A stretch of DNA of 64,000 bases from a virus (IMGVR_UViG_3300006201_000010:1-64000), one strand, 5' to 3'; shown: positions 50 through 59,506, counted from the stretch's first letter. Numbers and translations: made by a program. The notes: a model not told the origin generated them from the letters alone.

Positions 50-979
50 TTATGCGATTGTGAAGCGGGGGCGAAGGTAGTCCTCGCTGACCGCGTCGCC
101 GTTGTCCGCACGGCCATTGTCGCCCACAAAGCAGAAGTACCCAGCCGAGGCTACGTCACGCAGCCAGTAATATTCGCTGTTAATCAAGTCAGCAGTATTT
201 AAGCGGAATATCGGAAGTTGGTTTTTAGCAGTACCTGTATCAAAACCGCTTGAAGACCAAATAGTTCCGCCAAAAACTTCCATTTCCGACATAAGAACCG
301 CCTGAACGTCAACCCATGCCCAACTTGACGAAGCACCTGTAGCCTGCCCGAAGCGATTATATCGAGCACTATCTACTGCCGAAGATACAAGTTCTTTAAT
401 CGTTTGTAAGTGCGAGCCAAAAATATCATATAATTGCTCATTAATCGTACCGTTCGGATTGCCTGCGGTTGCTATAGGTCCAAGGATTGTTGTGTGCATT
501 TTTGAACCCTTATATCCGCCAGATGTTGTGGTGCTATTATTCATAGGCTGACAGTCACCAAAGTTTCTATCAGGAATTAAATCTAAGTGATTTTTCTTAT
601 ATGTGTAATAGTTACCCCAATGGCAGTTAAACCCTGCGATTTTGACAATATCTGTACCGCTATTATCACAATCGTCGCCAACCACTTTTACTACGCGAGG
701 CATTTTAATAAAATCGCCTATGTACAAATCCTCGAAAGGCGCAAAACCGTTTGTGCCCGCTATTCTGTCGTACAGCGATCCGTCGTTAAAGTACGACGTT
801 ATGTCCTTGCCACGGTAAATCGAGTTATGAAAACCCGCCGTATTAAGGTCTGCCGTATTAAGGATTGCATTAAACAGTTCTGCAAATTCAATCCTTTTTG
901 TTCCCTCTTCGCCGTCGTGAACTATTGACTGGTTCTTGGAAGGAACACCCTTTTGTAAGTCTTTGATGGTTATACCCAT
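50..979 (-). CDS. DUF6273-like C-type-lectin-fold tail/receptor-binding protein; DGR target 1
   Basis: HNSIYRGK...DLYIGD N-terminus and YWLRDV...FC.V...G.A....A......LRPRF C-terminus typical of Firmicutes phage DGR targets; last gene of the tail fibre module in the window. Confidence 0.8.
   Translation of the reverse strand: MGITIKDLQKGVPSKNQSIVHDGEEGTKRIEFAELFNAILNTADLNTAGFHNSIYRGKDITSYFNDGSLYDRIAGTNGFAPFEDLYIGDFIKMPRVVKVVGDDCDNSGTDIVKIAGFNCHWGNYYTYKKNHLDLIPDRNFGDCQPMNNSTTTSGGYKGSKMHTTILGPIATAGNPNGTINEQLYDIFGSHLQTIKELVSSAVDSARYNRFGQATGASSSWAWVDVQAVLMSEMEVFGGTIWSSSGFDTGTAKNQLPIFRLNTADLINSEYYWLRDVASAGYFCFVGDNGRADNGDAVSEDYLRPRFTIA
68..151 (-). repeat. DGR variable region VR1
   Basis: 67/84 nt identical to 48078-48161; all 17 differences are at codon positions 1 or 2. 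Confidence 0.85.
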
Positions 980-12445: not shown

Positions 12446-12471
12446 AAACTAACTCTCTTAATTGCTAAAAT

Positions 12472-25793: not shown

Positions 25794-25803
25794 AAAATGA
25801 ATT

Positions 25804-25880
25804 AAGGGCTACGGGTACCACACCACTGCAGTACTCATAGCCCCTTTTGGCTCTTGCCGTTGCCCACTTGCAACGGCGAT
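25804..25880 (-). ncRNA. Recurrent structured RNA element, copy C
   Basis: 65 bp identical to copy B; the distal stem strand differs but mostly keeps pairing. Confidence 0.65.
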
Positions 25881-33819: not shown

Positions 33820-34530
33820 TCAATTAAGTAAATCAAATATACTCACTTGCGCGGTTTCCTGCTCGAACCACTTTGTCCCTTTCTTGAAGTAGCCTTTTGA
33901 AATCTCAAAACCTATGTATCTTCGTTTAAGTTTATGACAAGCAATTCTGAGCGATTGAGAACCAGCGAAAGGGTCAAGAATCAAGTCGCCTTCTTTGGTA
34001 TAGTGGTTGAGCAACATAGTCCAAAGCTGGGTCGGTTTTTGCGTGGGATGAAAGCGGTAGTCCTTATTCGCCATATCGCCTTGTAGCATTCCGTTAAACA
34101 TATAGTGGAATACTCGCGCCACACCTTGACTGCACCACGCAAGTTCACAATCGCTAAAACTGTTCCGTAGTTTATCGTCGCAACGCTTGTCCCATACTAC
34201 CCAAGACTTCGTTACTGGAAGAACGTCTGTATAGTAGTTGCCACCGAAAAGAATTTGATTACCCGAAAGCTCAAATATCAGGTCGAAAAACTCTTTCCCG
34301 ATTCTCTCGTTGTCCCAAAGATTATCTTTGCAAGTGTAGTCCCGGCGCGTTGCCGCAGCCTTACCCGCTATCGCCACGCCGTTCGTATATGTCATTGTTC
34401 CGACACCTATTCCGTAGGGCGGATCGGTTATGCACCAGTCGGCTTTTATGCCTTGCTCTTTCATAAGTTGCATACCGACCTTACAGTCCAAGTTGTAGCA
34501 CTGGTTTACTTCGAGTTTCAACTTACACAC
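33820..34530 (-). CDS. DNA methyltransferase, N4-C/N6-A (beta class)
   Basis: Motif IV TDPPY before motif I DPFAGS; HPTQKP; C-terminal QVSIF. Confidence 0.88.
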   Translation of the reverse strand: MCKLKLEVNQCYNLDCKVGMQLMKEQGIKADWCITDPPYGIGVGTMTYTNGVAIAGKAAATRRDYTCKDNLWDNERIGKEFFDLIFELSGNQILFGGNYYTDVLPVTKSWVVWDKRCDDKLRNSFSDCELAWCSQGVARVFHYMFNGMLQGDMANKDYRFHPTQKPTQLWTMLLNHYTKEGDLILDPFAGSQSLRIACHKLKRRYIGFEISKGYFKKGTKWFEQETAQVSIFDLLN

Positions 34531-34643
34531 ACTGAACCTCGCTCTGCGCTATCGCTTGGGCGGTGGTCGCAATTACCTTTCGGCTTGTAATGCCCCCCCC
34601 CCGTCGGGCTTATGTCGATTTTAATGTACTGATTTTGTTTCAT
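34518..34643 (-). CDS. 41-aa leader ORF containing G10 (34593-34602), ending over the MTase start region
   Basis: MKQNQYIKIDISPTGGGHYK...VCVS*; stop TGA overlaps an in-frame TTG of the MTase. Confidence 0.45.
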   Translation of the reverse strand: MKQNQYIKIDISPTGGGHYKPKGNCDHRPSDSAERGSVCVS

Positions 34644-34654
34644 TCTTTTACGCT

Positions 34655-35712
34655 TTAATATTTAATAAAGTCCTTACCAAAAACCTTGTTAATTTCGTCA
34701 ATGCAGTGCGCCATTCCCAAGCCGCCACCTGCGGGTTTCCAAAAGCCGTCCGAATCATACGCTCCGCCATCCATGCAATATTCATACTGACGCGGGTGAG
34801 TGCGCTTTAATCGCTGAAAACGCCCCTCACCTTTTTCCTCATACGCCCCGAACGCACAGTAGACGCACCCGGTTCTATGACAACCAGTAGTACAAAGTTT
34901 GCCACAGCCGTCGCATAGCGTACTGCCGTACAAATTGCCGTCCGCCCCACGCGTTACAACTTCGCCGTAAACGCTTGCTATCGGCAAATCGTAACGCTTT
35001 ATGTATTCTAAAACGTCTTGTTCAGTCCAAAAGCTCATCGGTTTGCTCTTTGGCTTTTTGCTATTGAATGCGTTGCAGCCAGACTGTAACCAAGCCGTGC
35101 GTCTTAACATACTTTCTTCGGTCATTGTTGCCAGTATCGGCTTTTTCTTTAAATGACTTAATGGCTTTTTCTTCATTTCGCCGCAACAGCGGTGTGAAAT
35201 CAAGAAGTCCATATCAAGCAAGGGTTTCCACTTTGAGAAGTCGTACCTTTTGCTAAAGAAACCCCCAGTCCCCAACAGTTGCCTTACTCTGACCGGGTAA
35301 TTCTCCTGTGAGTTCGTAGTAGTGCTTGAAATAGCTGCCCCCCCCCCGCAATACAAAGTCTGGAATTATAAACACGCTCCGCAACTTCCTTGCCTATAAA
35401 GGGGTATCCGTATGTTTTTATAACTTCGTCAAAACGCATTTTAGGGCGCATAACTGTCACATTATCAAACGACTTTGCAAACTGTCTTACTTCGGGGTAT
35501 TCAAGCCCAGTATCGCAGAATACAGCCTCTACGTCGGGAAATATTCTACGCGCTATATGTAAAAGCACTGTGCTATCTTTGCCGCCAGAAAAGGACACAT
35601 AAACCTGCCCTTTAAATTTGAAGTACCATTCCATTATTCGTGTTTGCGTTATTGCAACCTTACGGTGAAACGGCGCGGCTTGTAATTCTTTAAGAAGTTC
35701 TATTGTAGGCAT
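34655..35712 (-). pseudogene. PAPS-reductase-family (DndC/SspD-like PP-loop) protein, frameshifted at G10 (35338-35347); probably phase-variable
   Basis: N-half SFSGGKDS and DTGLEYPE; C-half CCGEMKKKP and RTGCVYC in another frame; G8 or G11 restores a 351-352 aa ORF. Confidence 0.8.
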
Positions 35713-35715
35713 TCT

Positions 35716-36156
35716 CTATCCTTTTGGTTTGTCACCCTCGCTCGGAATTGAAATTCCAAGTTTCTCAAAATAAAACTCTACTTTATGGGGATTTGGCACC
35801 ACCAGTCCAAATCTGACCGCATTCTTGTATGTAACGCTGTCGCGCATTAAAACGCTCGGAAACCGCTCTATGTTTTTGCGGAAATTCTCCAAAGTTGAAC
35901 TTCCTTTATAATGGTTGCAACTGCGACAAGCGGGCAAATAATTTGACATTACGTCTAATTCTTCAGCGGTCTTGTGTTGGCGGTAACAATCAAAGCACCG
36001 CGCCATAGGCACAATGTGGTCAACCTGCATATCTTTTAAGGCGATTTCACAACCGCAGTAAGCACAGTGTCCGCCACATTTGTCGTAAACTTCCTGACGT
36101 TCCGACTTTGTTAATTGCTTGCGCTTGGGTGGATTGTAATCGTTTATGATAGGCAT
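35716..36156 (-). CDS. HNH endonuclease
   Basis: CAYCG...VDHIVP...N..PACRSCNHYK. Confidence 0.9.
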   Translation of the reverse strand: MPIINDYNPPKRKQLTKSERQEVYDKCGGHCAYCGCEIALKDMQVDHIVPMARCFDCYRQHKTAEELDVMSNYLPACRSCNHYKGSSTLENFRKNIERFPSVLMRDSVTYKNAVRFGLVVPNPHKVEFYFEKLGISIPSEGDKPKG

Positions 36157-36863
36157 TACTTACCCTCTTTTAATGCTTGGATAGTTTTCTCGCATTCTTC
36201 TCTCGTTTTATACAAGTCACAACCTTGAATCTTGTGAGAGTCGCTCCCTTTCTTATCTTTTACCCATGCACAAGTAATAAGTTCGTAGCTAAAATCACTA
36301 TCATGCTTAATAACTATTGAGCCATCGCTGTATTTTTTAATATGAGCGTCAATTTGTGTTACCGTCGCTTCCACAATCTCATATTCTCTTTCGCCTAACA
36401 CTGTTCCATAACCATTGCAAGTAGGACAATTAAGCTCGCAATCTAACGTCGCATTATTAGCACTTTCAACTTTCGCCTTGACTTTTTTGTTGCCGTTACA
36501 GGTAGGACAAACGACACGTTTTGTCACGTCCTTACGGTAATAGACAGTATCGCCAATATCAAAAGCTAAACCGAGTTCCGTAAACCATTTTGCTTTGAGT
36601 TTTTCATATTGAACTTCTTCGGATTTGGCAAGTTCAGATTCGCGCTCTTGCAATTTGAGTTCCTTTTCCCTTAAAGATTTCTCGCGCTCATTTAATAGTT
36701 TTTCTACTCTTGCATTGTTTTCGCTTGCACCTTGAATATTCTTATATTCATTTACAAATGCTTTGCGTAAAAATTCTTCAAACTTGCCAGAAGCCTTGTC
36801 TATGATTTCTTCAACTTCTGGATAATTCGGTTCTTTTTCATAATCATAATCGCAATAACTCAT
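36156..36863 (-). CDS. Protein with DnaJ-like CxxCxGxG zinc finger
   Basis: CPTCNGNK and CPTCNGYG. Confidence 0.6.
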   Translation of the reverse strand: MSYCDYDYEKEPNYPEVEEIIDKASGKFEEFLRKAFVNEYKNIQGASENNARVEKLLNEREKSLREKELKLQERESELAKSEEVQYEKLKAKWFTELGLAFDIGDTVYYRKDVTKRVVCPTCNGNKKVKAKVESANNATLDCELNCPTCNGYGTVLGEREYEIVEATVTQIDAHIKKYSDGSIVIKHDSDFSYELITCAWVKDKKGSDSHKIQGCDLYKTREECEKTIQALKEGK

Positions 36864-37252
36864 TATTTGTTCCCCTTTAATTCTTTTAAGCGTGCTTCAG
36901 CTTGGTCCTTTTCGGTAAAAACTGATTTACCGAAGTCTTCAAGCCTGAATGAGCGCAAACTGTTTGACGATGCCGTTTTTGCATTTTGACAGTCTATAAA
37001 TAAAATCTTTCTTCCGTCACAATGGAAACCCCAGCATTCAAGTTCTTCAATTTGCCACTTCCCGAAGACCTTTTTATGGGTGTAAAGCGTATCGTGAATC
37101 GCGCACGGCAATTCAAACGCTTGTCCGTTTTCGAGCTTGTCTTCTAACTCTGCAAGACGATTACAAATATCTGCATTGTCAACCCCTTCTTCGGGTTCTG
37201 CATATTCGCCTTTATAATCTGTCGTTACTCTATATCTTGTTAATCTTTCCAT
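36863..37252 (-). CDS. Conserved phage hypothetical protein
   Basis: MERLT...RLAELEDK.E.G...ELPC family pattern. Confidence 0.6.
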   Translation of the reverse strand: MERLTRYRVTTDYKGEYAEPEEGVDNADICNRLAELEDKLENGQAFELPCAIHDTLYTHKKVFGKWQIEELECWGFHCDGRKILFIDCQNAKTASSNSLRSFRLEDFGKSVFTEKDQAEARLKELKGNK

Positions 37253-37269
37253 AATTACCTCTATCGCTT

Positions 37270-37728
37270 TTAGAATGGAATATCGCCGTCCGGGTCGGGT
37301 TCGTAGTCCGCGCTCTTACCGCTTAAACCGCCGTCCATAATCGGCATTGTTCCGTCCCCGCGTGCGATTATTTGAATGAATTCGAGTTTTACCTCGTAAT
37401 AGTTCCGTTTATGTCCCGTGGCTTGCGATATGTACGACGACTTGTCTAAAACGCCGTAAACAAACACAGTATCAAACTCTTTAAGTTGACTTACAACCGC
37501 CGCCAGCGGGTGGTTATCCCATAGTCCAAAGTTCATTAACTGTCGTTGCCACTTGTCTTCTTCGAGCTTGCGGGATGCGCCGTTCGCTCTAAAAACGAGC
37601 TTGTGCGCATTTGTGTATGCGCTCGGTTCAGATATTGTCAGGACGTCGCCGTTTTGGTTGCTAAGCACCGTTCCAACGCCCATAACAATCGTTCTGCGCC
37701 ACTTGTCTTTATGTTTTATGAAGGACAT
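37270..37728 (-). CDS. Divergent single-stranded DNA-binding protein
   Basis: OB-like body (DTVFVYGVL...SY) with acidic tail ending DIPF. Confidence 0.6.
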   Translation of the reverse strand: MSFIKHKDKWRRTIVMGVGTVLSNQNGDVLTISEPSAYTNAHKLVFRANGASRKLEEDKWQRQLMNFGLWDNHPLAAVVSQLKEFDTVFVYGVLDKSSYISQATGHKRNYYEVKLEFIQIIARGDGTMPIMDGGLSGKSADYEPDPDGDIPF

Positions 37729-48056: not shown

Positions 48057-48824
48057 TTAGATACCGATTTGGAAATGGGGGCGAAGGTAGTACTCGCCGT
48101 CCGCGCTGTCGTAGTCCGCATAGCCATCGCTGTACACATCGCAGAAGTACACAGCCGAGGCAACCGAGCGAGTCCACTGCCATCTGCCGTACTCTCCGTC
48201 ACGGCAACCCGCAATGCGGTTGCGCCAGTCCTCTTTATAGAGTTCAAACTGTTCGCCCTCCTCGTACATTGCATGAATCTTTCTGCCGTGCAATTCAAAC
48301 TCCGACGGAATGAATACTTTGTCTTCCAAGAATTCTCCGTTGCCTACGTCAATTTTGGTCGGAATTATGTATTTTGCAAGGTCGTCGGGTAGCAACGCAA
48401 GGAAGTCTTCGTTGAGCCACTTGCGAGCAAGTGTCTTTGCATATCCCCCTTTAGTGGTACAACTTTTGTTCATTGCAATTCGCCCGTCGCCGTCGTTTGT
48501 ACCATACAAATCTAAAAGATTAAGAATAACCGCGTTGTCTTTTCTGTGAGTAATTTGTACCGTATAAAACTCACCGTTTTTTAAGGTAATATTCTTTTTT
48601 GCGCCTAAACCTAAAGCCTTTCCACTCTTAGTTTTTAAAATCTCAATAATCTCGTCCCAACTCTTACTGTTAAGGTCTATGGCAATAGCGGGTAGTGGAT
48701 GGTTTACCTCTATGAGCTTACTGCAGGTAGGACACTTTATTGCTGGGATAATATCCGACTCGTCAAATTCCATTGCTGTAAGACAGCCATTACATGTTGT
48801 TACATTCCCTGTGATTACTTTCAT
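48057..48824 (-). CDS. Zinc-ribbon + DUF6273-like C-type-lectin-fold protein; DGR target 2 (early region)
   Basis: N-terminal CxxC...CxxC; W.+...R.WLN..F...LP; KVFIPSEFEL; WTRSV...FC.V...G.A....A....YLRPHF. Confidence 0.8.
   Translation of the reverse strand: MKVITGNVTTCNGCLTAMEFDESDIIPAIKCPTCSKLIEVNHPLPAIAIDLNSKSWDEIIEILKTKSGKALGLGAKKNITLKNGEFYTVQITHRKDNAVILNLLDLYGTNDGDGRIAMNKSCTTKGGYAKTLARKWLNEDFLALLPDDLAKYIIPTKIDVGNGEFLEDKVFIPSEFELHGRKIHAMYEEGEQFELYKEDWRNRIAGCRDGEYGRWQWTRSVASAVYFCDVYSDGYADYDSADGEYYLRPHFQIGI
48078..48161 (-). repeat. DGR variable region VR2
   Basis: Shares all 28 third-codon bases with VR1; flanks are not alignable. Confidence 0.85.
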
Positions 48825-49795
48825 AAATTCTCCTTGTTAAAGTAAATTTCCCTTATTGTTTTTCCGTCCTTGCGCGGCACATAGTCCATGAATTCGCAAG
48901 TTCGGAATAGAATTCTGTTGTTGCACCACCGTTGCAAATCTCTTATGATTTGCGGGGCGGTATTTTTGCGGTAAATTCTTATGTCGGGCAAAAAACCCAG
49001 TTTTCTCACAGCTTGCACACGGTAAAGGTCTTGCTCTATCGTTGTGTTGAAATTTGTTAGTATGTAAACGATTTGCTTACTGTCGCCACCACCAACAATC
49101 TCTTTGTAAACCGAAAGACCTTTAATGATTGCCTTTTCGTTTTTCATAAAGTCGAAAGCGAAGTGCGTCCGCTTTGCCTTAATCTTTTTTAAGAGGTCGG
49201 CAACTTCTCGCGTAATAAATCTCGCATCGAGTCCTTGGTTGAAATTCACGTTCGCCTTACTATCTGCGAGCTGTTGCAGAAGTTCCATTCGGTCTTTGCA
49301 AGCAAGCAGGTTTGCGTCAAGCAGTTCAATATTTTTCTGCCCTTTCCAAAACTCTGACAAATCAGCAACCTTTTGACTGCATATTCCCTCTTTCTTGCTC
49401 ACAATGCAGAAGTCACAGTTGTTACAGCAACCCCGTGTAAGAAAGCCGTAAGCGGTATCCTTAGTGAGTTCGGGGTATAGACTGTAATCGGGGTAAATGT
49501 GTTCTATCTCGTCGGGTAGCACGGGGTCGCGGTCTTTATGGTAAACTTCTTTTCCGTTCTCAACCGTTATTGCAAAACCAGTTCCGCCGTAAACTATTTC
49601 GTCGGCTTGTAAGCAGGAAATCGGCATTTCCGAATACTCGTCGCCAAAAACCTTGCTGACATAGATTTTGTCGTAATGTTTTAAAGGCAATACAAACTCT
49701 ACCGAATCGCCACGCGCCTTGTGCCACGCTGATATTTTCATTAAGGGCAGGTTCGGGAAGTTATGACTATCAACGTCGAATAAACCGATATTCAT
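48821..49795 (-). CDS. Radical SAM protein
   Basis: TRGCCNNCDFC (CxxxCxxC); FPNLPLMKISAWHK phage family N-terminus. Confidence 0.85.
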   Translation of the reverse strand: MNIGLFDVDSHNFPNLPLMKISAWHKARGDSVEFVLPLKHYDKIYVSKVFGDEYSEMPISCLQADEIVYGGTGFAITVENGKEVYHKDRDPVLPDEIEHIYPDYSLYPELTKDTAYGFLTRGCCNNCDFCIVSKKEGICSQKVADLSEFWKGQKNIELLDANLLACKDRMELLQQLADSKANVNFNQGLDARFITREVADLLKKIKAKRTHFAFDFMKNEKAIIKGLSVYKEIVGGGDSKQIVYILTNFNTTIEQDLYRVQAVRKLGFLPDIRIYRKNTAPQIIRDLQRWCNNRILFRTCEFMDYVPRKDGKTIREIYFNKENL

Positions 49796-50427
49796 TAACT
49801 TTCGTCCTTTTTATTTCCGAGCAGTAAGGTTAAACCGTTTGCACCTGCCAGTTTCAAAAACTGTTCCGATGCTTGTCTGTTCTTTAAGGTTTCTTTTATA
49901 CGGGGCATTGCTTTTAAAAATCTGCCCTTTTCAAATACCCTGCTTTCGTTGTCCATTGCCGCAATTTCTCTCAACCCCGATATGTTTACACAATAGGCTT
50001 TAATTTCTTCCGACAGCTCGGACCAGATTTTACTCAACTTTGCCGTTCCGCGCCGATAGCTTTCGTCGCCGTACCTCAAATCACAGCTTGCGTCGTGAGT
50101 TTCATACAATACGCTTACTAACTCTGCCCAAAGTTCTTCGTCGGTCTTTTTGTTCGCGTTTACGAGCTTATCCACCTCGTCAAGAATGTTCTTTATTTTG
50201 GGTGCAAAGTCGGACGTTTTTATTGCATTACTGACAGATTGGAATACTACCTCTCGCGGGTAATCTTTCAAAGTGTCGTACCAGTAAGCAATAAGCAACC
50301 TGCCTTCTTCTTCGCTTTGAAAATTGTACGCATTCTCAAAGTTTGTTCTTATGAGCATTATGAGCTGAGGAATATCTGTTTTTTTAAGGTTTGCCATCGT
50401 TGTTTTCTGTACCGTCGTCGTCCGCAT
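49795..50427 (-). CDS. Replicative helicase loader/inhibitor (G39P-like)
   Basis: Follows the initiator; W...L.DY.......++......FAP.I pattern. Confidence 0.6.
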   Translation of the reverse strand: MRTTTVQKTTMANLKKTDIPQLIMLIRTNFENAYNFQSEEEGRLLIAYWYDTLKDYPREVVFQSVSNAIKTSDFAPKIKNILDEVDKLVNANKKTDEELWAELVSVLYETHDASCDLRYGDESYRRGTAKLSKIWSELSEEIKAYCVNISGLREIAAMDNESRVFEKGRFLKAMPRIKETLKNRQASEQFLKLAGANGLTLLLGNKKDES

Positions 50428-51247
50428 CTTCTTCTGCGGCGGCTTGGTTAAATAGGTTTTTTAATATATCAGTACCACGCTCTCGCGCTGCACCTTTACC
50501 TTTCTTCGTGGAAGGGTTCTCTTTAAAGTCGTTATAATAACCTGTAAGAATTTTCTTATAGTTCTTACAAATCCACCCAAGGTTTTTTGCGAAAGGTCTG
50601 TCCTGTAAGAATGTTTTGCTGTCTTCATAGAATTGAGCAAGTAAGGTAAAGTCTATATCTGAAACTGTACCGTCATACCCGTCAACTGTTATGTTGAACC
50701 TTTCGCAAAACTCTTTCATTCCCACAATCTCGTCGCCTATACGCGCGGGCGCGGGGGGGATAATATCTATATCTTCATCTGCATCTCTATCTGCCTCTAT
50801 TGGAATTTGGTTTGAATTTGGTTGTAATTTTTCCAACCCGTCCCCTGTTCCAAGTTCAGCATTTTGTTTCTGTCTTCGCTTATAAACGTTGTTATATGTT
50901 TCACTTCCGATTGAACCTGCGGCTTGCGGCAAGAACCCGTCGCCGTCATTTTTTTCAATTAAAAGCCCTTGTATCCGAAGATAATTTATCGTTACGCGAA
51001 CGTTTTCTTCGTCTTCGTCCAGCTTGTTAGCCATTTCAGCTTCAAACGTTTCTTCGATTCCCTCGTAGATTAAATATCCGTTACACTCAATACTTAAAAG
51101 CATAAGTTTCAAGTAGATAATCGTGTATGTATCTCCGCCTGCAATACGGCGCAACTTCTTAATGCGCGCGTCGCGGAAAAAGTGTCTGTCGAGCTTTAAC
51201 CAGTAGTACCTTTTGTTGTTAATCTCGTTTCCGTGTGCCATACACAC
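50384..51247 (-). CDS. Phage replisome organiser/replication initiator
   Basis: RYYWLKL...FF.D..IK.LR...GGD.Y..IYLK++L N-terminal domain. Confidence 0.88.
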   Translation of the reverse strand: MCMAHGNEINNKRYYWLKLDRHFFRDARIKKLRRIAGGDTYTIIYLKLMLLSIECNGYLIYEGIEETFEAEMANKLDEDEENVRVTINYLRIQGLLIEKNDGDGFLPQAAGSIGSETYNNVYKRRQKQNAELGTGDGLEKLQPNSNQIPIEADRDADEDIDIIPPAPARIGDEIVGMKEFCERFNITVDGYDGTVSDIDFTLLAQFYEDSKTFLQDRPFAKNLGWICKNYKKILTGYYNDFKENPSTKKGKGAARERGTDILKNLFNQAAAEEDADDDGTENNDGKP

Positions 51248-51368
51248 CTCAAAATTCGTTATTTGGTCGCGGGAAATGCCCCTTTTTCGCGTTTTTCAGC
51301 GGACCGCGACTATTTACCCGCCAAAACCCTTCGTGTCGTAAAGGGGCATTTAAACGCTTAGTTGTTGA

Positions 51369-52472
51369 TTAGTTCTTCTTGTTGAAAAAGGCATCTTCAA
51401 CGGTCTGCTGACCTTTGGTAGATTTGCCTGTTTTCTTGCCTTTCGCCGGGGACTGCTCTGCGCCGTCGGTTTCCGAACCACTTTCTTCGTCTTCGTTGTC
51501 AACGCCTGCTCTCTCAGCCATAGCCGCGATTTCTTCGTCGTTGGGTTCGCCGTCGATAACGATAACGTCGCCAAGGCTTTCTTCGTTCTCGTTTCTGCTG
51601 TCGGAATAATGAATAGGCGCGTCGGGTGAAAGTTCTTCTCTGAAACCGCCGTCCGATTCGTATGCTTTCTGGAAGTCAACGGACATTACGCCCCATTTAC
51701 CGATAAGCTGGCGAATCATAGTCTTTCTCGCCATTCCGTCGAAATCAACGTACCAGAAAGAGCTGTACTTCCAAGCGTCTTCGGGCGGATATTTACCTGC
51801 AAGGTAGTCTTCATATGATACACGCGCAACCTTGGGGTTGTTTGACTTAACCGCGTCGAGCTTGAATGCCTTGCTGTATCTTGCAGCGTGCTGTAACATT
51901 TTCTTCTTTGACCAGTAGATAGCCTTGAAGAAACCGCCGTGCGCTGCGTTGTAACGGAAGAATGCGTAATAGCCGACTGTGGGAGTCTTCTCGCGCTGTT
52001 CGTCGTCTTCAATGGGTCTGAATTCATAAACTTCGTTTATGTTGTCGATTTTTACGACTTCGCCCTCTTTGATTTCAACGACGTTTAACTGCTCGTAATA
52101 GCCCGACCTTTCCGCAAGCTGTACATAACCTTTCCAGCCAAGGACGAAAGTTGCAACCGTGCGGTCATTCTTCTTGTCCTCGAAAGGTAATATGTAGCAG
52201 TGCCCGATAGAAGGCGACATAGAGAGCTTTAAGGCGTTTGCCAAAAGTCCTGCGCTTACAACCGTCGGGAAGTCGCATTTCTGCAACTGGGGATTGACCG
52301 CTACTGCCGAGGAAATGCTACTTATAAACTTTCCCGCCTCGTTCTCGTTACCTATCATTGAAACGATAGAGTTCTTGTTTTCAACCTTCTGCAACCACGC
52401 CGAGAAACGCTTGGGCTGTTCCTGCGGGGCGGGTTGCTGTTGAAGACTTGTTAAAGTGTTCTTACCTGCCAT
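51369..52472 (-). CDS. recT: RecT-family recombinase
   Basis: NP.L..C...++...L....LKLS......YI+PF...A.F.LGWKGYVQLA.RSG; MARKT. Confidence 0.92.
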   Translation of the reverse strand: MAGKNTLTSLQQQPAPQEQPKRFSAWLQKVENKNSIVSMIGNENEAGKFISSISSAVAVNPQLQKCDFPTVVSAGLLANALKLSMSPSIGHCYILPFEDKKNDRTVATFVLGWKGYVQLAERSGYYEQLNVVEIKEGEVVKIDNINEVYEFRPIEDDEQREKTPTVGYYAFFRYNAAHGGFFKAIYWSKKKMLQHAARYSKAFKLDAVKSNNPKVARVSYEDYLAGKYPPEDAWKYSSFWYVDFDGMARKTMIRQLIGKWGVMSVDFQKAYESDGGFREELSPDAPIHYSDSRNENEESLGDVIVIDGEPNDEEIAAMAERAGVDNEDEESGSETDGAEQSPAKGKKTGKSTKGQQTVEDAFFNKKN

Positions 52473-52494
52473 AATGATTTATTCTCCTTAATTT

Positions 52495-53283
52495 TTAGTC
52501 TTCGATTTTTCTGTACTCAATGTTGTTTTCATTGAGGAATGCAGCCAGTTTCTGGAAGTCTTCCGCCGAACCCTTAACTTCAAAACGAATGGTGATTTCG
52601 GTTTCTTCTTCGCCGTCGCTCGTTGCTGTTTTCTGTGCCGCATTCAGTTCCGCAACCTTAGCGCGGTCAGCTTTAAGCCTTTTGTTTTCTTCTATCGTCT
52701 GCGCCAGATTTAAGGTGCGGAAATAGAAAAGTTTCAAGCCGTCCGTATCGTTCGCGCCGAGCGAATCAATGACCGTTAAGTCCTCGCGGATCTTCGCTAT
52801 TTTTTTGTCGATAGCCTTTGTTACTGCCTTGATTTTTGAAGTAGCGTTATACCACTTGGTGTCTTCGATTTTTTCGTAAGGAACGAGGTCTGCAAGGTCG
52901 CCGATAACTTCGTTAAAGTACTTAACTATCTCGGCTTTCTTTTCTGCTTTTACCTTGTTTTCGGCGGTTGTGATTATTTCGCCGATTCTGTCGGTAGCTT
53001 TCGTTACCGCCGCAATTACTTCGTTTACTTCTTCGGTAAACTTATCAAGCGGCGCGGTATAGACTTTCTTAATCTCTAAACGCTTTGAATTCAAAGTCTT
53101 AATGAAATTGTTCAACGCGGTTCTGTCTTCCTTTGCCTGCGAAATATCGTCGCCGTATTCTGCGTTCAGATAACGGGGCAGAATTTCGTTTACCTGAGCC
53201 ATAAGCTCTTTGTTGTTCCAAGCTATCATTGCGGGAATGAGCTTGCTCACGTCGTCCTTTAAGATAAGTTCGAGTTGTGACAT
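52495..53283 (-). CDS. DUF1351-family protein
   Basis: Between YqaJ and RecT; AK.DR..LN..R.EIKK.Y..P...F. Confidence 0.75.
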   Translation of the reverse strand: MSQLELILKDDVSKLIPAMIAWNNKELMAQVNEILPRYLNAEYGDDISQAKEDRTALNNFIKTLNSKRLEIKKVYTAPLDKFTEEVNEVIAAVTKATDRIGEIITTAENKVKAEKKAEIVKYFNEVIGDLADLVPYEKIEDTKWYNATSKIKAVTKAIDKKIAKIREDLTVIDSLGANDTDGLKLFYFRTLNLAQTIEENKRLKADRAKVAELNAAQKTATSDGEEETEITIRFEVKGSAEDFQKLAAFLNENNIEYRKIED

Positions 53284-53319
53284 AGAAATATCTCCTTAAT
53301 AATTTTTAATTATTTTTTT

Positions 53320-54003
53320 TTAAATCGGGGGTAATTTAAGGGGCGGTTCTTTTTTTGCTATCACATATTGCCAGAATTCGTCTTCCGCCTTTTCAAGCAC
53401 TTTGATACTTTCTTCTTCACTGCGTTCAAACTTATATTCTCGTTCCGTGATAACAAGTTTTTTCTTGCCATTCTCGTCGAGCGAATAACTTTTAAAGCGC
53501 ACCTTTAATATGTAAAAGTCCCAGCCTGTCGTACTCAGATAATGAAGTATTTGACAGTAATAGTAGTCTGGTATTTTGTCGTCCCACTGCTCCCAAGCCT
53601 TTCGGCTGTTCGGCTCAGTATGCTTGATTTCAAGTCCACCCTTGCGCCCGGTGGCTTTTTCAATAAGCCCACCGTCAACCGATGCGAATCGGTGTCCGCG
53701 TTTGAATACTGTGTCCTTATAGTCAACGAATTCATATTCGTCCGCATGCTCAATAGCGAATAACTGTGCAATAGGGTCTTCCGCCAAAGAACCTTCTTCC
53801 ATTCGTTTGTTGGTTTTAAATGACGACTGCACCAAGCCAACCTTTTCTTTCCAAAGGTCTGTGTTCTTTTTCCAAGGGCTTAACCCAAGAACCGCCGCCG
53901 CGTCGCTACCGCCTATCCCTTTTGTGCGAAGCGCGTACCATTCGGGCGACTTATATTTGATTTTTAATTCTTCAACTACCTTTTCCATTTCTTTACCTGA
54001 CAC
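53320..54003 (-). CDS. YqaJ-like viral exonuclease
   Basis: W...R..GIGGSDAAAVLGLSPW; ASVDG; LEIK; QILHY. Confidence 0.92.
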   Translation of the reverse strand: MSGKEMEKVVEELKIKYKSPEWYALRTKGIGGSDAAAVLGLSPWKKNTDLWKEKVGLVQSSFKTNKRMEEGSLAEDPIAQLFAIEHADEYEFVDYKDTVFKRGHRFASVDGGLIEKATGRKGGLEIKHTEPNSRKAWEQWDDKIPDYYYCQILHYLSTTGWDFYILKVRFKSYSLDENGKKKLVITEREYKFERSEEESIKVLEKAEDEFWQYVIAKKEPPLKLPPI

Positions 54004-54260
54004 GCAATTCCAGTGCTTTCGGCTTCCATAAGTCCGTAATTGTGCCAGAATTCATCCCACCATTCGGTTGAAAGTCCACCCTTTGAAAAGTGCTCAAAGG
54101 CTCTATGCGGTGCTTGGTTAGCTATATAATCAAGGCTCTTGTGCCTTGCTTCAATGGCGGTATATACCGCACTACTGATAGGCTTTCTTCTTGTTTTAAT
54201 CTTAATGGTGGGCTGCTTGATTATTTTTACAAAAATTATTTGAAACATTGTTTTGCTCAC
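53976..54260 (-). CDS. Hypothetical protein
   Basis: 94 aa ORF. Confidence 0.4.
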   Translation of the reverse strand: MSKTMFQIIFVKIIKQPTIKIKTRRKPISSAVYTAIEARHKSLDYIANQAPHRAFEHFSKGGLSTEWWDEFWHNYGLMEAESTGIACQVKKWKR

Positions 54261-54270
54261 TTGAAAGTTT

Positions 54271-55272
54271 TTATTTTATGCCGCTATCGGCACCCTGATT
54301 AAAGAGGTTAATCTGTGTACCCCCCCCCGCGACTCTCTTTTTGATAATGGGAATGTATTCGGGGGAAAGTTCTATGAGAATGAAATCTCTGCCGTTTTCC
54401 TTTGCTACTTCGCCAGTAGTCCCACTGCCTGCAAACGGGTCAAGCACCGTTCCGCCCACTCTACTGCCCGCAAGAATGCAGGGTTTGATTAAGTCTTTCG
54501 GGAATGTTGCGAAGTGTGCACCTTTGAATGGTTTAGTGGTTACGTCCCAAACGTCGCGTTTGCGCCGTGTGGGTCTGAAATCGTAAGCGTGTCCACTCTT
54601 TGTTCTGTAAAACTTATCGGGGTTCTCGGTGTATTTCTTACCGCCGTATCGAGGTAATTTTTCACCAGTCTGTTCCGTCGGCTCTTTAAAACGTTTTGAC
54701 GTATAGTCAACAACTGGTTCTTCAATAGCCTTGTAATCGAAGTAGTAATGCGCCGATTTTGAAAGCAAGAAAATGTATTCGTGCGATTTGGTACAGCGGT
54801 CCGTAACGCTTTCAGGCATAGGGTTTGGTTTGTGCCAAATTATGTCCTGCCGTAAATACCAGCCGTCCGCCCTTAGTGCAAGAGCAAGCAACCAAGGAAT
54901 ACCCATTAAGTCTTTCGGTTTCATTCCAAGAGAAGAAGGCTTTATAAGTTCGTGCTTATGTGTTCCGAGAATGCCTTTGTTTGTTGCTTGTATCTTTGCA
55001 AGCGGAGTCGTTTGTCCTTTACCTTTTCCGCTACCCGCGTAACTGTCCGCTATGTTGACCCATAATGTGCCGTCAGACTTTAAAACGCGCCGAACTTCGC
55101 GGAATATATCAACGAGCTTTTCTATGTACTCGTCAACCGTCTTTTCAAGCCCGATTTGCCCCTCTACGCCGTAATCTCTCAACTGAAAGTATGGCGGTGA
55201 GGTTACACAGCAATCAACGCTGTTTGACGGTATAGTTTTAAGTTTTTCAAGAGCTTCGCCTTGTATAATCAC
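54271..55272 (-). CDS. DNA methyltransferase, N4-C type (beta class), with in-frame G9 (54320-54328) before C-terminal QINLF
   Basis: TSPPY, HFATFP, DPFAGSGTT. Confidence 0.9.
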   Translation of the reverse strand: MIIQGEALEKLKTIPSNSVDCCVTSPPYFQLRDYGVEGQIGLEKTVDEYIEKLVDIFREVRRVLKSDGTLWVNIADSYAGSGKGKGQTTPLAKIQATNKGILGTHKHELIKPSSLGMKPKDLMGIPWLLALALRADGWYLRQDIIWHKPNPMPESVTDRCTKSHEYIFLLSKSAHYYFDYKAIEEPVVDYTSKRFKEPTEQTGEKLPRYGGKKYTENPDKFYRTKSGHAYDFRPTRRKRDVWDVTTKPFKGAHFATFPKDLIKPCILAGSRVGGTVLDPFAGSGTTGEVAKENGRDFILIELSPEYIPIIKKRVAGGGTQINLFNQGADSGIK

Positions 55273-57074
55273 GCAGCCACCTTTTTCTTGCGCTTTCCCT
55301 GCGCCGACGCGGTTTTATCGAATTCCAGATTAAGGTCTTTCATTGTCGGTATATTGTTATCAACTACCGCAAGTTCAGGTACATTCGCTTTAACGAGAGC
55401 CGTAGCAACGGGCGGACATACCGCATTTCCGAGCCTTGCAATTTGTTTGGATTTGTTGTACGCTTTGCCGATTTTACTTTCTATGTCAATGCAGTAATCA
55501 GCGGGGAAGCCTTGGGTGAGTTTCAGTTCTTCGGGTTCAAGCATTCTCATTCCAACGTCGGAAATAAAATACTGTACGCCATTGATTTCAAAAATGAGAA
55601 GTTCGTCCTCGGCTATGTTGTAACCTGCATAGTTGTTCAGTAATTCGCGGACCTCGTTCCACTTTCCGAGATTTTTCGTATCGCCAACTTTCTGCAGATA
55701 AGTGCTTACTAATACTTCGTGTCCTTTCGCTGTTACCGTAGGGAATTGCTCTCTCAAATCAGAGCATCCCATGTGATTACGCAATACACATAAATGCTGT
55801 TCGACGAGATAGTGACGAGGCTCAACCGTTACTGTCGGCAGTGGTTTATCGGGACTGCTTGCGTGGTCTGCGCCGCCGTAATAGTGCACGATATTTGCCG
55901 TCATAAGGTGTTCGTGATTTGTGCCCGTAACAGTGGGTGCGGGTTCACTCATACTGCTACCCCTTCCGTCTGCGCCGTCGCCGTATCTGCTTGAAAGGTT
56001 GACAGAAACCAGCGCATTATGGTCAACCCCCGTTACAGTCGGAGCAGGTTCGTTTATGTCTGCCCCTTTCTGGTGCTCACCGCTGAAATGTTTCGCCAGA
56101 TATTTAGCCGCAAACTTGGGTTCGATAAGGTAATGGTGATTTGCCGAAGTTTGCGTCGACATAGGCTTGTTCGGGTCTTGCGCCGTATTCGAGTAGTTCA
56201 TTTCCATAATGAACGGCTGAGGGCTTTTAATTACAAACTTATCAAGTCCGCGCGCGATTCTGCGCAATGTGTTGACCGCAAGCCCTTTCTTTCTGTCGAA
56301 AATTGAGGGACATTTTAGCAGCCAGTTAATACAGTCGGCGGCTGTTCTGTAAGGCTCTAAGCCCTCACTCTCGCCGTGTGTAGGCGCGGGCCACACGATA
56401 GGCTTTTTGTCGCAACGAGCAATAAGGTAGAAACGCTTTCTTATTGTGGGCGCGCCGTAATCGCAGGCTTTAAGCACTTTCCATTCGACTTCGTAACCGA
56501 GCGCGCGCAGTTGCTCAACAAATCTGTTGAATGTCTGCCCGGCGCGTTTTTTATCGGGTTCAAACTGCTGCTGTTCTGCCGAAAGCACTTCGCCTTTTTC
56601 GGCGGTTATGTACTTAGTTTTGCCTCCCACTTTTATGATTTCTTTTACACAGCGTCCATTTACGCGAATAGGCTTTAAGGGTCCCCAAGTCGTAAATTCT
56701 TCGACGTTTTCAAGAATGATTACACGGGGACGGACCATTCCAGCCCATTTGAGCGCAATCCACGCAAGACCGCGTATATTCTTCTTGACGGGCGTATTAC
56801 CTTTCGCTTTGGAAAAGTGGGTGCAGTCGGGCGAAAGCCACATAAGACCTACGGATCGCCCTTGCGTAATTTCTTTCGGGTTTACACCCCACACGTCTTC
56901 CATAAGGTGTTGCGTGTAAGGGTGATTAACTCCGTGCATTGCTATTGCATCGGGGTTGTGGTTTATCGCAACGTCAACAGGCACACCGAGCGCAAGTTCT
57001 ATTCCCGTGCTTGCGCCGCCGCCGCCAGCGAAGTTGTCAACTATCATTTCACGCAGAAGGTTGTCTTGATACAT
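55269..57074 (-). CDS. dcm: Large C5-cytosine methyltransferase with repeated variable-region modules
   Basis: DNFAGGGG, SPDCTHFS, ENVEEF, TIRKR, GNAV; five P.(P/S)T(V/Q)T modules. Confidence 0.88.
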   Translation of the reverse strand: MYQDNLLREMIVDNFAGGGGASTGIELALGVPVDVAINHNPDAIAMHGVNHPYTQHLMEDVWGVNPKEITQGRSVGLMWLSPDCTHFSKAKGNTPVKKNIRGLAWIALKWAGMVRPRVIILENVEEFTTWGPLKPIRVNGRCVKEIIKVGGKTKYITAEKGEVLSAEQQQFEPDKKRAGQTFNRFVEQLRALGYEVEWKVLKACDYGAPTIRKRFYLIARCDKKPIVWPAPTHGESEGLEPYRTAADCINWLLKCPSIFDRKKGLAVNTLRRIARGLDKFVIKSPQPFIMEMNYSNTAQDPNKPMSTQTSANHHYLIEPKFAAKYLAKHFSGEHQKGADINEPAPTVTGVDHNALVSVNLSSRYGDGADGRGSSMSEPAPTVTGTNHEHLMTANIVHYYGGADHASSPDKPLPTVTVEPRHYLVEQHLCVLRNHMGCSDLREQFPTVTAKGHEVLVSTYLQKVGDTKNLGKWNEVRELLNNYAGYNIAEDELLIFEINGVQYFISDVGMRMLEPEELKLTQGFPADYCIDIESKIGKAYNKSKQIARLGNAVCPPVATALVKANVPELAVVDNNIPTMKDLNLEFDKTASAQGKRKKKVAA

Positions 57075-57078
57075 AGCA

Positions 57079-57747
57079 TTACCCCCAAATCAACCTATCT
57101 TGTCTGAAATCGTCGCCCATAATCTTGCGAAGGCTACCTTTCATAAAGACCCTTATTCCGCGCTTGTCGGCTTGCTCAACGATTCGGGTTATCCATTCCT
57201 TTTGCGGAATAATCTTACCTTTGCGGTTGCCTGTTTCCGCGCCGATTATAAGCTGACGCGTTCTACCCAAAATCGAAGACAAGTCAAGCGGTTCAAGTAT
57301 CGGCTCAATGCTAAGGAAGTCCGTTATCTCGTCTTCACCAAGCGCGTCGACCTGCGACTGCATTGTTATGGTCTTTCCGATAAAGAGCGGAAGTTTGCCT
57401 CCGTACTTCTTGCAGAATTCGTCCTGCTTTTTGTTGAATATGGCAATGTCGGTTTTGGTTAAAGCTATGTACTTGTGCTGAGGGAATAACTGCATTGCGA
57501 GCAGTACTTCTTCAAGCCATTCGTCCTTCCAAGTGCCTATGTCAGACATGCTGTCAATGAATATGCGCTTGGGCTTTTTGCTTTTAAGTTTCTTTAACTG
57601 TTCGGGTCTGTATTCGGGGCAAGCCCAGTTTTTTACATAATGGAAACGCTTATTCATAACATTGCCATAGCAGTATTTACAGCCATTCGGACAGCCCATT
57701 ACGGGGTTTACGGTGCTATCGCACCAGTCGATTTTAGTTTTGTTCAT
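57079..57747 (-). CDS. DUF5131 (gp37/gp68) family protein
   Basis: TKIDWCDSTVNPVMGCPNGCKYCY; FLSIEPIL; IIGAETG. Confidence 0.85.
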   Translation of the reverse strand: MNKTKIDWCDSTVNPVMGCPNGCKYCYGNVMNKRFHYVKNWACPEYRPEQLKKLKSKKPKRIFIDSMSDIGTWKDEWLEEVLLAMQLFPQHKYIALTKTDIAIFNKKQDEFCKKYGGKLPLFIGKTITMQSQVDALGEDEITDFLSIEPILEPLDLSSILGRTRQLIIGAETGNRKGKIIPQKEWITRIVEQADKRGIRVFMKGSLRKIMGDDFRQDRLIWG

Positions 57748-57768
57748 AAGTTTTCTTCTCGTTCCTTT

Positions 57769-57981
57769 TTAGAGTTTTGAGATCCGCAGAGCGGACGGCT
57801 TATATTGCCCGTTCCGTTGCGCAGTTCTCATACAGGTGTAACAGCAATAGCACTTTTGACCGTCCTTATAGACGTAATCCGCCCAGTTAAGGCGACAAAA
57901 CTTCTTACCACACGTCGGGCAAGTTTTTGTCATAAGGTCAACGCATCTTGTTGTTGCTTTTTTGGTCTTGGGCTTTTTCAA
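57769..57981 (-). CDS. Small zinc-finger protein
   Basis: CPTCGK...YCCYTC. Confidence 0.6.
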   Translation of the reverse strand: MKKPKTKKATTRCVDLMTKTCPTCGKKFCRLNWADYVYKDGQKCYCCYTCMRTAQRNGQYKPSALRISKL

Positions 57982-58655
57982 TTCAGTCCCCCATTGTTAT
58001 GTTCTAAGATTTCTTCAACGACTTCGTTCATTTCTTCTTCGCTGTCAACTGCATAGAGTGTAGAAATTGACACTTCGTATGCGATGCGATTTTCGATTCC
58101 GCTGTCAGTTGCTTTCTGATATTCGCGGCTTTGTATGCGCCCCACTACGACTATTCTGTCGCCGACTTCGAGCTTATCAACAAAGTTCGCGTTTCTGCCC
58201 CACGCTATGGCGGGTATGTAATCTGATTTTCCGTAAGAGCGGTTGACCGCAATTAAGAGGTCTGCGATTTCACGGTTCAGCGGTGTAATGCGGTAAACGG
58301 GCGGCTTGCAGATATAACCAGCAAGAATGATTTGGTTCGGGTTCTTACTGGTAGGCTCGTCCAAAAGTTCACGCACAAAGAATGTAAGGCAGAGCCTTGT
58401 TTTTCCGTCTATGATTTTGTTGTACGAGCGGAATTGCCCTACCGCGCAAATCTGCGCCCCCCCCCGTAACGTTTCAAGGTTTACAAGCCTTTCGGAAATC
58501 GTAACAGGCAAATTGTCCGTCTGCCCCGAAAGGCGCGGTACCTTTACGGTCATTTCGTAAAACTTTTCGCCGCGTTCTTCGTGAGAGAGTTTAGGTTCGC
58601 CGTCGATTTCGCCGCAAATGTACGCTCTGTTAGTTTTGTCTTTTAAGTTTTCCAT
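57978..58655 (-). CDS. ssb: Tandem-OB single-stranded DNA-binding protein (Clostridial type), with in-frame G9 (58457-58465)
   Basis: PRLSG..D.LP...GQFRSYN; RSYGKSDYIP.IAWGRNA; GRIQSREY. Confidence 0.9.
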   Translation of the reverse strand: MENLKDKTNRAYICGEIDGEPKLSHEERGEKFYEMTVKVPRLSGQTDNLPVTISERLVNLETLRGGAQICAVGQFRSYNKIIDGKTRLCLTFFVRELLDEPTSKNPNQIILAGYICKPPVYRITPLNREIADLLIAVNRSYGKSDYIPAIAWGRNANFVDKLEVGDRIVVVGRIQSREYQKATDSGIENRIAYEVSISTLYAVDSEEEMNEVVEEILEHNNGGLN

Positions 58656-58683
58656 AGGTTTTTATGTTCCTCCAAAAATATTG

Positions 58684-59506
58684 TCAAATAGTGAATAATG
58701 ATATTTGCCCGCCCGACGAAATATTGTTCAGTCGGTCTTTGGCTATCTTTGCCCACTTGGGATCTATCTCAAAACCCAAGTAGTTTAGTCCTAAATTCTT
58801 TGCCGCTACGCAGGTTGTACCGCTCCCGGCGAAAGGGTCAAATATGAGTGCCCCCCCCCCCGCAAGCGTGCTGTAAATGCCTTGTTACGAGCGGTAGCGG
58901 TTTAATCGTCGGGTGCTCAAATTTATCTTTATCGCCCTTGTTTGCGCCCGATACAAACCACTTGCTTTTGAATTCATATCCGTCATTGAGTGGTACGCCC
59001 TTTTCGCGGAAGAAAAGGCAGTATTCAATATCGGGTAGCCAACTGTTATTTGTCTGCGGCGTAGGGTTTGTTTTGTTCCAAGTTAAGAGTTCAAACAAAC
59101 AGCCCTTTTGGTCAATGAAGTATTTCATTATGTCGAGCAGTTGTAACTTACTGCACCAAATGAAAACATTTATCTTTTTGAGCACTCGGCAGAATTCGTC
59201 GAGAATTGCATAGTCAATTCCATTTTCAATGGACTGTCCTTCTTGCTCGCGTTCTCCCCTTTTGGCTTGCTTTAACATTTCGCCGTAAGTCATTCCATTT
59301 AAAGCGGCGCGCGAATCGTCGTACCCCATAAGCCTTAACCGTTTCTTGGCTGTTCTCTCGCCAAGTTCACTGCTACCACTACCGCCTTGTTGATACAGGT
59401 AAGGTATATCCGTGTAAATACAGTCAATACTCTTATCGGGAATGCGCTTTATGGCTTCGTATGCGTCAACGCATTGTATTGAGTTTTCTTCAAAGGGTCC
59501 TATCAT
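58684..59506 (-). pseudogene. DNA methyltransferase (beta class), frameshifted at G11 (58851-58861); probably phase-variable
   Basis: N-part TDIPY, HPTIKP; other frame continues ALIFDPFAGSGTT...GFEID...QISLFTI*; G10 gives 273 aa. Confidence 0.88.

Follow-up and report, generated by a model that had tools for sequence, protein, structure and literature searches.

Length-variable poly-G tracts as probable phase-variation switches in early DNA-modification and replication genes of a temperate gut Clostridia phage

The stretch analysed, called the window here, was the first 64 kb (positions 1-64000) of IMGVR_UViG_3300006201_000010, an IMG/VR virus record of 85,792 bp that CheckV rates as complete and that is labelled 'linear'. 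Six poly-G tracts in its early region (33820-59506) are probably slipped-strand, or simple-sequence-repeat (SSR), contingency loci of a temperate, siphovirus-like Clostridia phage. On identical flanks, these tracts span 7-13 G across many samples, which is the polymorphism that an earlier note, made from the sequence alone, had proposed looking for in related phages, and natural populations contain the same genes in both ON and OFF form, each in tens to hundreds of contigs. The window holds seven runs of at least nine, named T1 (17-26, G10), T2 (34593-34602, G10), T3 (35338-35347, G10), T4 (43268-43278, G11), T5 (54320-54328, G9), T6 (58457-58465, G9), and T7 (58851-58861, G11). All are poly-C on the plus strand and hence poly-G on the coding (minus) strand, and the positions and lengths given for them in the earlier note were all correct. 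The switches are T2-T7; T1 is an element of another kind and is described separately.

Runs of this length are far beyond chance. In the whole record, C runs numbered two of length 6, none of length 7 or 8, two of length 9, three of length 10, and two of length 11, and the longest G run on the plus strand was 7. No further run of at least 9 was found in the remaining 22 kb of the record beyond the window. Recalculation under base-composition or first-order models gave 0.08-0.11 expected runs for C and 0.02-0.05 for G, in agreement with the earlier estimate of about 0.1. GGG was the rarest glycine codon (10.3%), with GGT and GGC preferred, and none of the 10 other Gly-Gly-Gly sites was written GGGGGGGGG (nine G's). 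Since GGG is the least used codon, other triple glycines are never nine G's, and one synonymous change would lock the frame, the uninterrupted runs are maintained. The simplest cause of the bias towards G on the coding strand would be that Gly-Gly-Gly loops are tolerated, as against Pro-Pro-Pro. As a separate observation, the base 5' of each of the six conserved tracts on the coding strand (34603, 35348, 43279, 54329, 58466, and 58862) was always C, for which about 27% would be expected by chance; the 5' context was GC or AC, often TGC-Gn.

For tract-length comparison, 25 loci were obtained by exact-protein look-ups of three invariant neighbour proteins (each indexed in ~200-230 blocks of the protein collection) in ENA (SPAdes), JGI, NCBI metagenome-assembled genomes (MAGs), and Logan. 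Only assembled consensus contigs were compared, with 60/60 bases identical on each flank. The loci are given L numbers and the sequencing runs X numbers. The phage was detected in at least nine studies, from mouse gut or related samples. The lengths found were 9-12 at T2, 8-11 at T3, 7, 9, 10, and 11 at T4, 9-13 at T5, 8-9 at T6, and 8-12 at T7. In an indel census of 259 kb of alignments at ≥97% identity, T2-T7 were the only multi-allelic sites, and a control G7 run at 50753-50759 was unchanged in 10 loci. Population counts were made from exact protein forms in a 15-billion-protein collection; they rest on clusters with 15 members listed each, and the contigs are not independent samples.

Three of the tracts, T3, T4, and T7, split otherwise whole genes exactly at the run, as the earlier note had claimed; Pfam matches were obtained on both pieces of each gene. 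All three are OFF in the window, and at every predicted in-frame length the gene as called in public data was whole (273 aa for T7, 351, 352, or 379 aa for T3, and 486 or 487 aa for T4). T7 splits the first methyltransferase gene of the early operon, which encodes an N6_N4 DNA methyltransferase (58684..59506, minus strand, PF01555), between PF01555 profile positions 1-179 and 182-220, just 5' of the FDPFAGSGTT S-adenosylmethionine-binding motif. P0001, which is 99% identical to this methyltransferase, is unsplit. The tract was G8 in L016, G9 in L023, G10 in L009, L020, and L022, G11 in the window, L017, and L021, and G12 in L019; at G10 the gene is ON and encodes 273 aa. In the population, forms of 272-274 aa were found in ~173 contigs and frameshifted forms in ~170 (232/233 aa in ~117 and 221/222 aa in ~53), so that the share in frame was ~50% and the commonest length was the in-frame G10. 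In relatives of ~70% protein identity, the run was kept at the same codon as G9 or G10; most other homologues of the enzyme had ATQPNDIVLDPF at the site, without a run.

T4 splits a C5 cytosine DNA methyltransferase (42268..43759, minus strand, PF00145) between its ENV and QRRR motifs. It was G7 in L030, G9 in L025, L026, and L028, G10 in run X7, and G11 in the window and L029. G7 (L030, 486 aa) and G10 (X7) are in frame, and G9 and G11 are out of frame. Proteins of 486/487 aa were found in 13 contigs against ~59 with broken forms (~18% in frame). T3 splits a gene of the PAPS-reductase, or PP-loop, family (34655..35712, minus strand, PF01507), with PAPS_reduct profile positions 2-51 before the break and 81-172 after it. 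The tract was G8 in L027, G9 in L025, G10 in the window, L026, L028, L031, and runs X2, X3, and X7, and G11 in L029 and L030. The gene was whole at G8 (L027, 351 aa) and at G11 (L029, 352 aa; L030, 379 aa), and split at G9 and G10. Whole proteins of 351/352 aa were found in 28 contigs against ~130 with split N-terminal pieces, again ~18% in frame. A second frameshift in this gene, suggested by an alternative frame that looked more protein-like, was rejected, the G8 and G11 alleles being whole at 351/352 aa and the frame being conserved in L030.

If each tract had one true in-frame length, the frameshifts would be homopolymer artefacts of sequencing or assembly. All of the assemblies are from short reads (SPAdes or Logan), and G runs of at least 10 are error-prone. 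T1, seen in this record alone, is 17 nt short of a contig end, and the Logan assembly of the probable source run, X1, breaks off exactly at T3 and T5, as well as at a variable region described below (48058-48181). Against such errors, lengths of 7-13 were found on identical flanks in consensus contigs of 5-67x coverage from many studies and assemblers, and the same exact frameshifted protein recurred in 40-110 contigs. Four runs of one study agreed on G9 at T7, and the Logan re-assembly of X1, which bridged T2 and T4, gave both the same lengths as the record. Nor could error give rise to the tracts or hold their codon positions constant among diverged relatives. Artefact is thus a very improbable source of the frameshifts.

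The tracts and their genes are both conserved. Variant alleles with flanks of 87-95% identity still have T3, T4, and T5. The ratio of nonsynonymous to synonymous substitution rates (dN/dS), computed against diverged alleles, was 0.05-0.14 around T3, T4, and T7: 0.06 for the N-terminal and 0.05 for the C-terminal part of the T7 methyltransferase (against L014), 0.07 and 0.05 for the corresponding parts of the PAPS-reductase gene (against the L030 allele), and 0.14 for the C5 methyltransferase (against L028), computed only for the part after T4. The tract genes are under purifying selection and are kept functional despite frequent OFF states. Coding repeats beyond chance, lengths that vary between identical genomes, the occurrence of both frames, and maintenance of the gene, all found here, are among the marks of SSR contingency loci.

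Several observations weigh against maintained, highly unstable switches. At T3 and T4, the ON share of contigs is only ~18%, where free drift among three frames would give one-third; such a deficit also fits dispensable or costly genes being lost. Loss is seen directly: T4's gene is deleted in L027, and a deletion of ~650 bp in L015 (8606-9064), L018, and L024 has removed the N-terminal half of the T7 methyltransferase (window 58862-59508). At the latter deletion, CCGCTTGC is joined straight to the G tract, and the event looks like one between short CGCTTGC repeats that ended exactly at the tract. The agreement of four runs of one study on G9 shows that the tracts are not unstable enough for every sample to differ. 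The ends of the X1 contigs are only a weak hint of within-sample heterogeneity, since homopolymer read errors could also produce them. Enrichment of the tracts in methyltransferase genes within the early region alone is only marginal (four of six tracts in 29% of the sequence, binomial p ~0.06).

Part of this evidence would suit neutral mutational hotspots in dispensable genes, where slippage has no adaptive role, the mixture of ON and OFF forms is drift, and the methyltransferases are accessory cargo being lost. The low ON fractions at T3 and T4 and the permanent removal of the T7 and T4 genes in some lineages are in its favour, as is the probability, judged from the integrated contigs L017, L018, and L021, that the sampled copies are mostly prophages with silent early genes. 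It is opposed by dN/dS of 0.05-0.14 downstream of the tracts and by T7, where lengths peak at the in-frame G10 and about half of the contigs are ON. The tracts stand at the same codon in relatives of ~70% identity, where one synonymous change to GGT or GGC would have locked the frame and none occurred, and a tract within a methyltransferase gene recurs in four other methyltransferase families in unrelated prophages. Neutral drift was therefore considered an unlikely account, and contingency loci the probable one.

At the remaining three tracts, a change of length does something other than turn a gene ON or OFF. T5 is G9 and in frame in the window and lies 3' of the catalytic domain of a 333-aa N6_N4 DNA methyltransferase (54271..55272, minus strand; PF01555, E 7.8e-55, residues 19-312). 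Lengths of G9-G13 were found across L015-L024, and the three frames give tails ending in TQINLFNQGADSGIK, YTD, or VHRLTSLIRVPIAA. Products of 320-323 aa were found in 132 contigs, 331-332 aa in 39, 333-334 aa in 49, and 335 aa in 7. As judged from the translated frames, T5 would change only the C-terminal tail and leave the enzyme intact. A QINLF motif is present in one T5 frame only. The bacterial beta-clamp-binding pentapeptide is QL[SD]LF, and the C-termini of four of the five N6_N4 methyltransferases carry QVSIF (33820-33850), QLSLF (41552-41580), QINLF (54271-54320), and QISLF (58687-58715). Three of the full ends are QVSIFDLLN (the enzyme at 33820..34530), QLSLFTE (41552..42346), and QISLFTI (the T7 enzyme), and in homologues of the T7 enzyme a C-terminal GQxSLF is retained. 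These tails resemble the clamp-binding motif in sequence. With T5 toggling only a clamp-motif-like tail, the natural variants could show whether phage methyltransferases travel with the sliding clamp.

T6 is G9 and in frame in the window and lies in the first of two OB-like repeats of a 225-aa single-stranded DNA-binding (SSB) family protein (57978..58655, minus strand; PF00436 on residues 107-200). It was G9 in most loci and G8 in L019, where the gene is split into products of 71 and 132 aa, and the homologous place in relatives of ~70% identity was G10 (L011, L013) or G11 (L014). T6 had been considered as a stable in-frame control, being G9 in 10 of 11 long contigs, and was dropped from that use when the split form was found in ~200 contigs. 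Proteins of 224/225 aa occurred in ~215 contigs and the 132-aa C-terminal piece in ~204, so that ~50% were in frame.

T2 lies within a 41-codon leader open reading frame (ORF) that begins MKQNQYIKIDISPT-GGG (34518..34643, minus strand) and is also present in the diverged L030 allele; in-frame lengths do not apply to it. The tract sits 62 nt upstream of the GTG start of the third N6_N4 DNA methyltransferase (236 aa, 33820..34530, minus strand; PF01555, E 8.8e-22), and the leader ORF overlaps that start. T2 was G9 in L026, L027, L028, L030, X2, and X7, G10 in the window and L025, G11 in L029, and G12 in L031. With G9 or G12, the leader stops at a TAA 2 nt past the GTG start; with G10, at a TGA 10 nt past it; and with G11, ~45 nt upstream. 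T2 probably sets translational coupling from the leader ORF to the methyltransferase. A promoter-spacer switch was also considered and rejected, as no sigma-70-like promoter was found at the tract by a simple consensus scan, which is weak evidence.

Alternative products rather than null alleles at T5 and T6 are also what programmed transcriptional slippage or ribosomal frameshifting could give. An OFF allele would then still produce a certain amount of whole enzyme, or two products at a fixed ratio, with DNA length serving only to adjust that ratio. Runs of at least nine identical bases are known slippage sites of RNA polymerase, and the commonest state of T3 is the out-of-frame G10. Transcriptional slippage is, however, best documented for A/T runs, and it leaves the wide variation in DNA length unexplained. 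As a replacement for length switching in DNA it has little to recommend it, and it can coexist with such switching as leakiness.

As a mechanism for the probable contingency loci, slipped-strand mispairing during replication of runs of 9-11 G would add or remove single G's at high frequency, and each change of length would shift the frame downstream. Genes with T3, T4, and T7 would be turned ON or OFF; T5 would swap the methyltransferase tail, with QINLF in one frame; T6 would determine whether the SSB has both OBs or ends ahead of the second; and T2 would move the stop of the leader ORF relative to the methyltransferase start codon. Switching may be reversible on short time scales. It would yield progeny with differing DNA-modification patterns, as a hedge against restriction and against modification-dependent defences. 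Of the similar interpretation in the earlier note, hypermutable tracts that are polymorphic between otherwise identical phages stood; the parts that did not are that T1 is no switch, T5 changes a tail only, and T6 lies in an SSB gene.

T1 had been listed with the switches in the earlier note. It does not belong to them: eight relatives (L032-L039) read GGGTGGGGTA at this place, and the G10 is private to the present record. T1 follows the stop codon of the gene at 50..979, which encodes a DUF6273 protein. The relatives have CCCCACCC-GCGCGTC-GGGTGGGG-TA there, with a perfect 8-bp stem, and in the window, 17 nt short of where the contig stops, the length is unchanged but three bases are substituted (T, T, and A to G). 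Because the relatives have a perfect hairpin and the window departs from it by substitutions at unchanged length, T1 is the 3' arm of the target-site hairpin of a diversity-generating retroelement (DGR), and its G10 is possibly a contig-end error. A GC-rich hairpin stands 3' of each of two DUF6273 genes (50-979 and 48057-48824), which share a 100-nt 3' repeat that is 78% identical (55-154 and 48065-48164); the equivalent hairpin of the second target is CTCACACC-CTTGC-GGTGTGAG. The X1 contig end at 48058-48181 falls in this second variable region. In the eight relatives (as at L032:6581-9484), a 178-aa avd-like ORF and then an RVT_1 reverse transcriptase come after the first target gene. The present record ends at the ATG of the avd-like gene, and the DGR cassette (~2.5 kb) is missing from the contig. 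The gene order fits a DGR with two targets, and a GC-rich stem-loop placed 3' of the variable repeat, near an avd-like ORF and a reverse transcriptase, may have a role in homing. A role for T1 as a switch of the downstream avd-like gene was rejected, as the relatives have no tract there.

The early operon occupies 33.8-60.2 kb on the minus strand and diverges from CI-like repressor and integrase genes at 60.7-63.2 kb. It encodes recombination and replication proteins (RecT/YqaJ, a replisome organiser, a G39P-like loader, and two SSBs), nucleases (HNH, GIY-YIG, and VRR-NUC), a DUF5131 (radical-SAM-like) protein, the PAPS-reductase (PP-loop) protein, and seven DNA methyltransferases, of which five are N6_N4 (PF01555) and two are C5 (PF00145). 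Three methyltransferases have no tract: two N6_N4 enzymes (40517..41290, E 1.4e-29, and 41552..42346, E 1.1e-31, both minus strand) and the 601-aa C5 enzyme (55269..57074, minus strand, E 6.5e-28). None of T2-T7 is in a structural or tail gene; the tracts are in early DNA-modification and replication genes. Pfam profile matches confirmed the earlier count of five tracts in or just upstream of modification genes.

Integrated copies of the phage are widespread, and prophage methyltransferases can alter host phenotype, as with S. aureus PamA (PMC13076061), which is a distant analogy only for the present case. The earlier note had suggested that the phage, as a lysogen, might also vary the host methylome; in a phasevarion-like role of this sort, the prophage methyltransferases would be expressed in the host, and their switching would vary its methylome and gene expression. 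None of the enzymes is part of a restriction-modification system, however. No restriction gene is adjacent, the neighbours being SSB, DUF5131, RecT/YqaJ, HNH, and PAPS_reduct genes, and the enzymes are orphan phage methyltransferases rather than mod or hsd genes of a host restriction system, so the phasevarion family does not apply. By gene order, all tract genes should be silent in lysogens, because they lie in the early lytic operon, which is transcribed away from the CI-like repressor gene. A lysogen role of this kind is improbable, and it is most likely the phage's own genome whose methylation matters.

In the integrated copies (L017, L018, and L021), a 452-aa integrase adjoins bacterial sequence in contigs of up to 285 kb. 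The flanking homoserine dehydrogenase was 73-75% identical to the best genomes of the 'Candidatus Coproplasma' MAG family, in which genome size is 1.2-2.6 Mb, and the closest homologues of the DUF5131 protein (55-60% identity) were from Christensenella, Clostridia, and Eubacterium MAGs of mouse and rabbit gut. On the basis of the homoserine dehydrogenase and DUF5131 matches, the host is placed among uncultured, small-genome, Christensenellales-like Clostridia of the mouse gut, with only the family-level neighbourhood nameable. In a search of 50,697 GenBank phage records for near-identical or distant DNA, no cultured relative was found, the sole match being 374 bp of Bacillus phage phi105, and no relatives were found in IMG/VR with the 601-aa C5 methyltransferase.

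Other features of the genome were noted. The arm past the integrase, corresponding to the record beyond 64 kb (L015:1-4567), contains TROVE/Ro60-like and RtcB genes in circular-form contigs and a gene of the Acb2/Tad1-hairpin family, an anti-CBASS/Thoeris sponge family. A 652-aa Dam/DUF4942 methyltransferase is present in L032-L038. The phage thus appears, from these gene matches, to have an eighth methyltransferase and counter-defence cargo. Near-identical phages differ in whether they have a YopX-like gene (47121..47582), which several loci lack; in runs X2 and X7, nine letters stand in place of a 463-bp stretch (window 47124-47588). An 81-nt direct repeat, 94% identical, lies at 12469-12549 and 25800-25880 in intergenic sequence of the late (structural) operon.

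Other Clostridia prophages were examined for poly-G tracts in methyltransferase genes as well. Of 62 prophage loci, all selected solely for a DUF5131 homologue, 11 held 18 G/C runs of at least 8; two of the 11 loci overlap in one contig and share a run, and 16 distinct tracts were examined. Ten or 11 of the 16 (G8-12) were in MT-A70, Dam, N6_N4, C5, or ParB_N genes, so the association of tracts with methyltransferase genes holds in unrelated prophages and extends well beyond the present phage. The TGC-Gn context noted above was seen again at 8 of these 16 tracts. Five Coproplasma-family genomes had 3-12 tracts of at least G9 per 1.6-2.2 Mb, compared with six in 86 kb of the phage. Poly-G-switched methyltransferases may be a general, so far undescribed strategy of temperate gut-Clostridia phages, in which each phage has a battery of modification genes that switch independently, giving bursts of many methylation 'phasotypes', with finer control at T5, T6, and T2; this broader proposal is held tentatively, with less confidence than the contingency loci themselves.

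If switching is adaptive, a single gut prophage would release progeny with many DNA-modification patterns, which would go some way to account for the survival of temperate phages among the very diverse restriction and modification-dependent defences of gut bacteria. In practice, frameshifted methyltransferase genes in viromes should neither be thrown out as pseudogenes nor 'corrected' on the assumption of homopolymer error. Public mouse-gut data contain each switch in both of its states, so the idea is directly testable. In a literature search without most subscription journals, nothing was found on poly-G-switched methyltransferases in gut or Clostridia phages.

Four known systems are close enough for comparison. 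In bacterial phasevarions, which include phase-variable Type III mod, Type I hsd, and Campylobacter cj0031 methyltransferases (PMC4889913, PMC13076061), repeat-driven frameshifts likewise switch a DNA methyltransferase ON and OFF. Those are chromosomal restriction-system genes whose switching rewires host expression, whereas the enzymes described here are orphan phage PF01555 and PF00145 methyltransferases in a lytic operon. Campylobacter Fletchervirus phages have hypermutable poly-G tracts (Sorensen et al. 2021, Cell Rep 35:109214), and these are also runs of 7-11 G in phage coding sequences, which there make phenotypic subpopulations. They are in receptor-binding proteins of virulent phages whose host is itself poly-G phase-variable, in contrast to the early modification and replication genes of the present phage. 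Bordetella phage BPP-1 has a poly-G tract in a methylase gene (Liu et al. 2004, cited in bioRxiv 10.1101/2025.10.21.683753) and, like the present phage, is temperate and carries a DGR; according to the citing paper, its tract is a single one that received mention but no further study, and the host of BPP-1 is a proteobacterium. The closest experimental precedent, from the same preprint, is the A9 repeat in agt of coliphage T2 (Gomez, Barrick, Waters; bioRxiv 10.1101/2025.10.21.683753), where +1 and -1 frameshifts switch modification off and back, sensitivity to TgvAB is traded against sensitivity to McrA/BC, and reversion is ~1000-fold above that of a point mutant. Both cases involve a mononucleotide repeat inside a phage DNA-modification gene. 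The agt switch is an A9 tract in a glucosyltransferase gene of a virulent coliphage, with reversion measured, while the present phage has G9-11 tracts at six loci, with methyltransferase and PP-loop genes among them, in a temperate Clostridia phage, and the evidence for its switching is natural polymorphism. What is new relative to these precedents is the number of independent switches per genome and the way they are concentrated in the set of methyltransferase genes of a Clostridia phage, together with the non-binary uses at T5, T6, and T2 and a population-scale record of both states.

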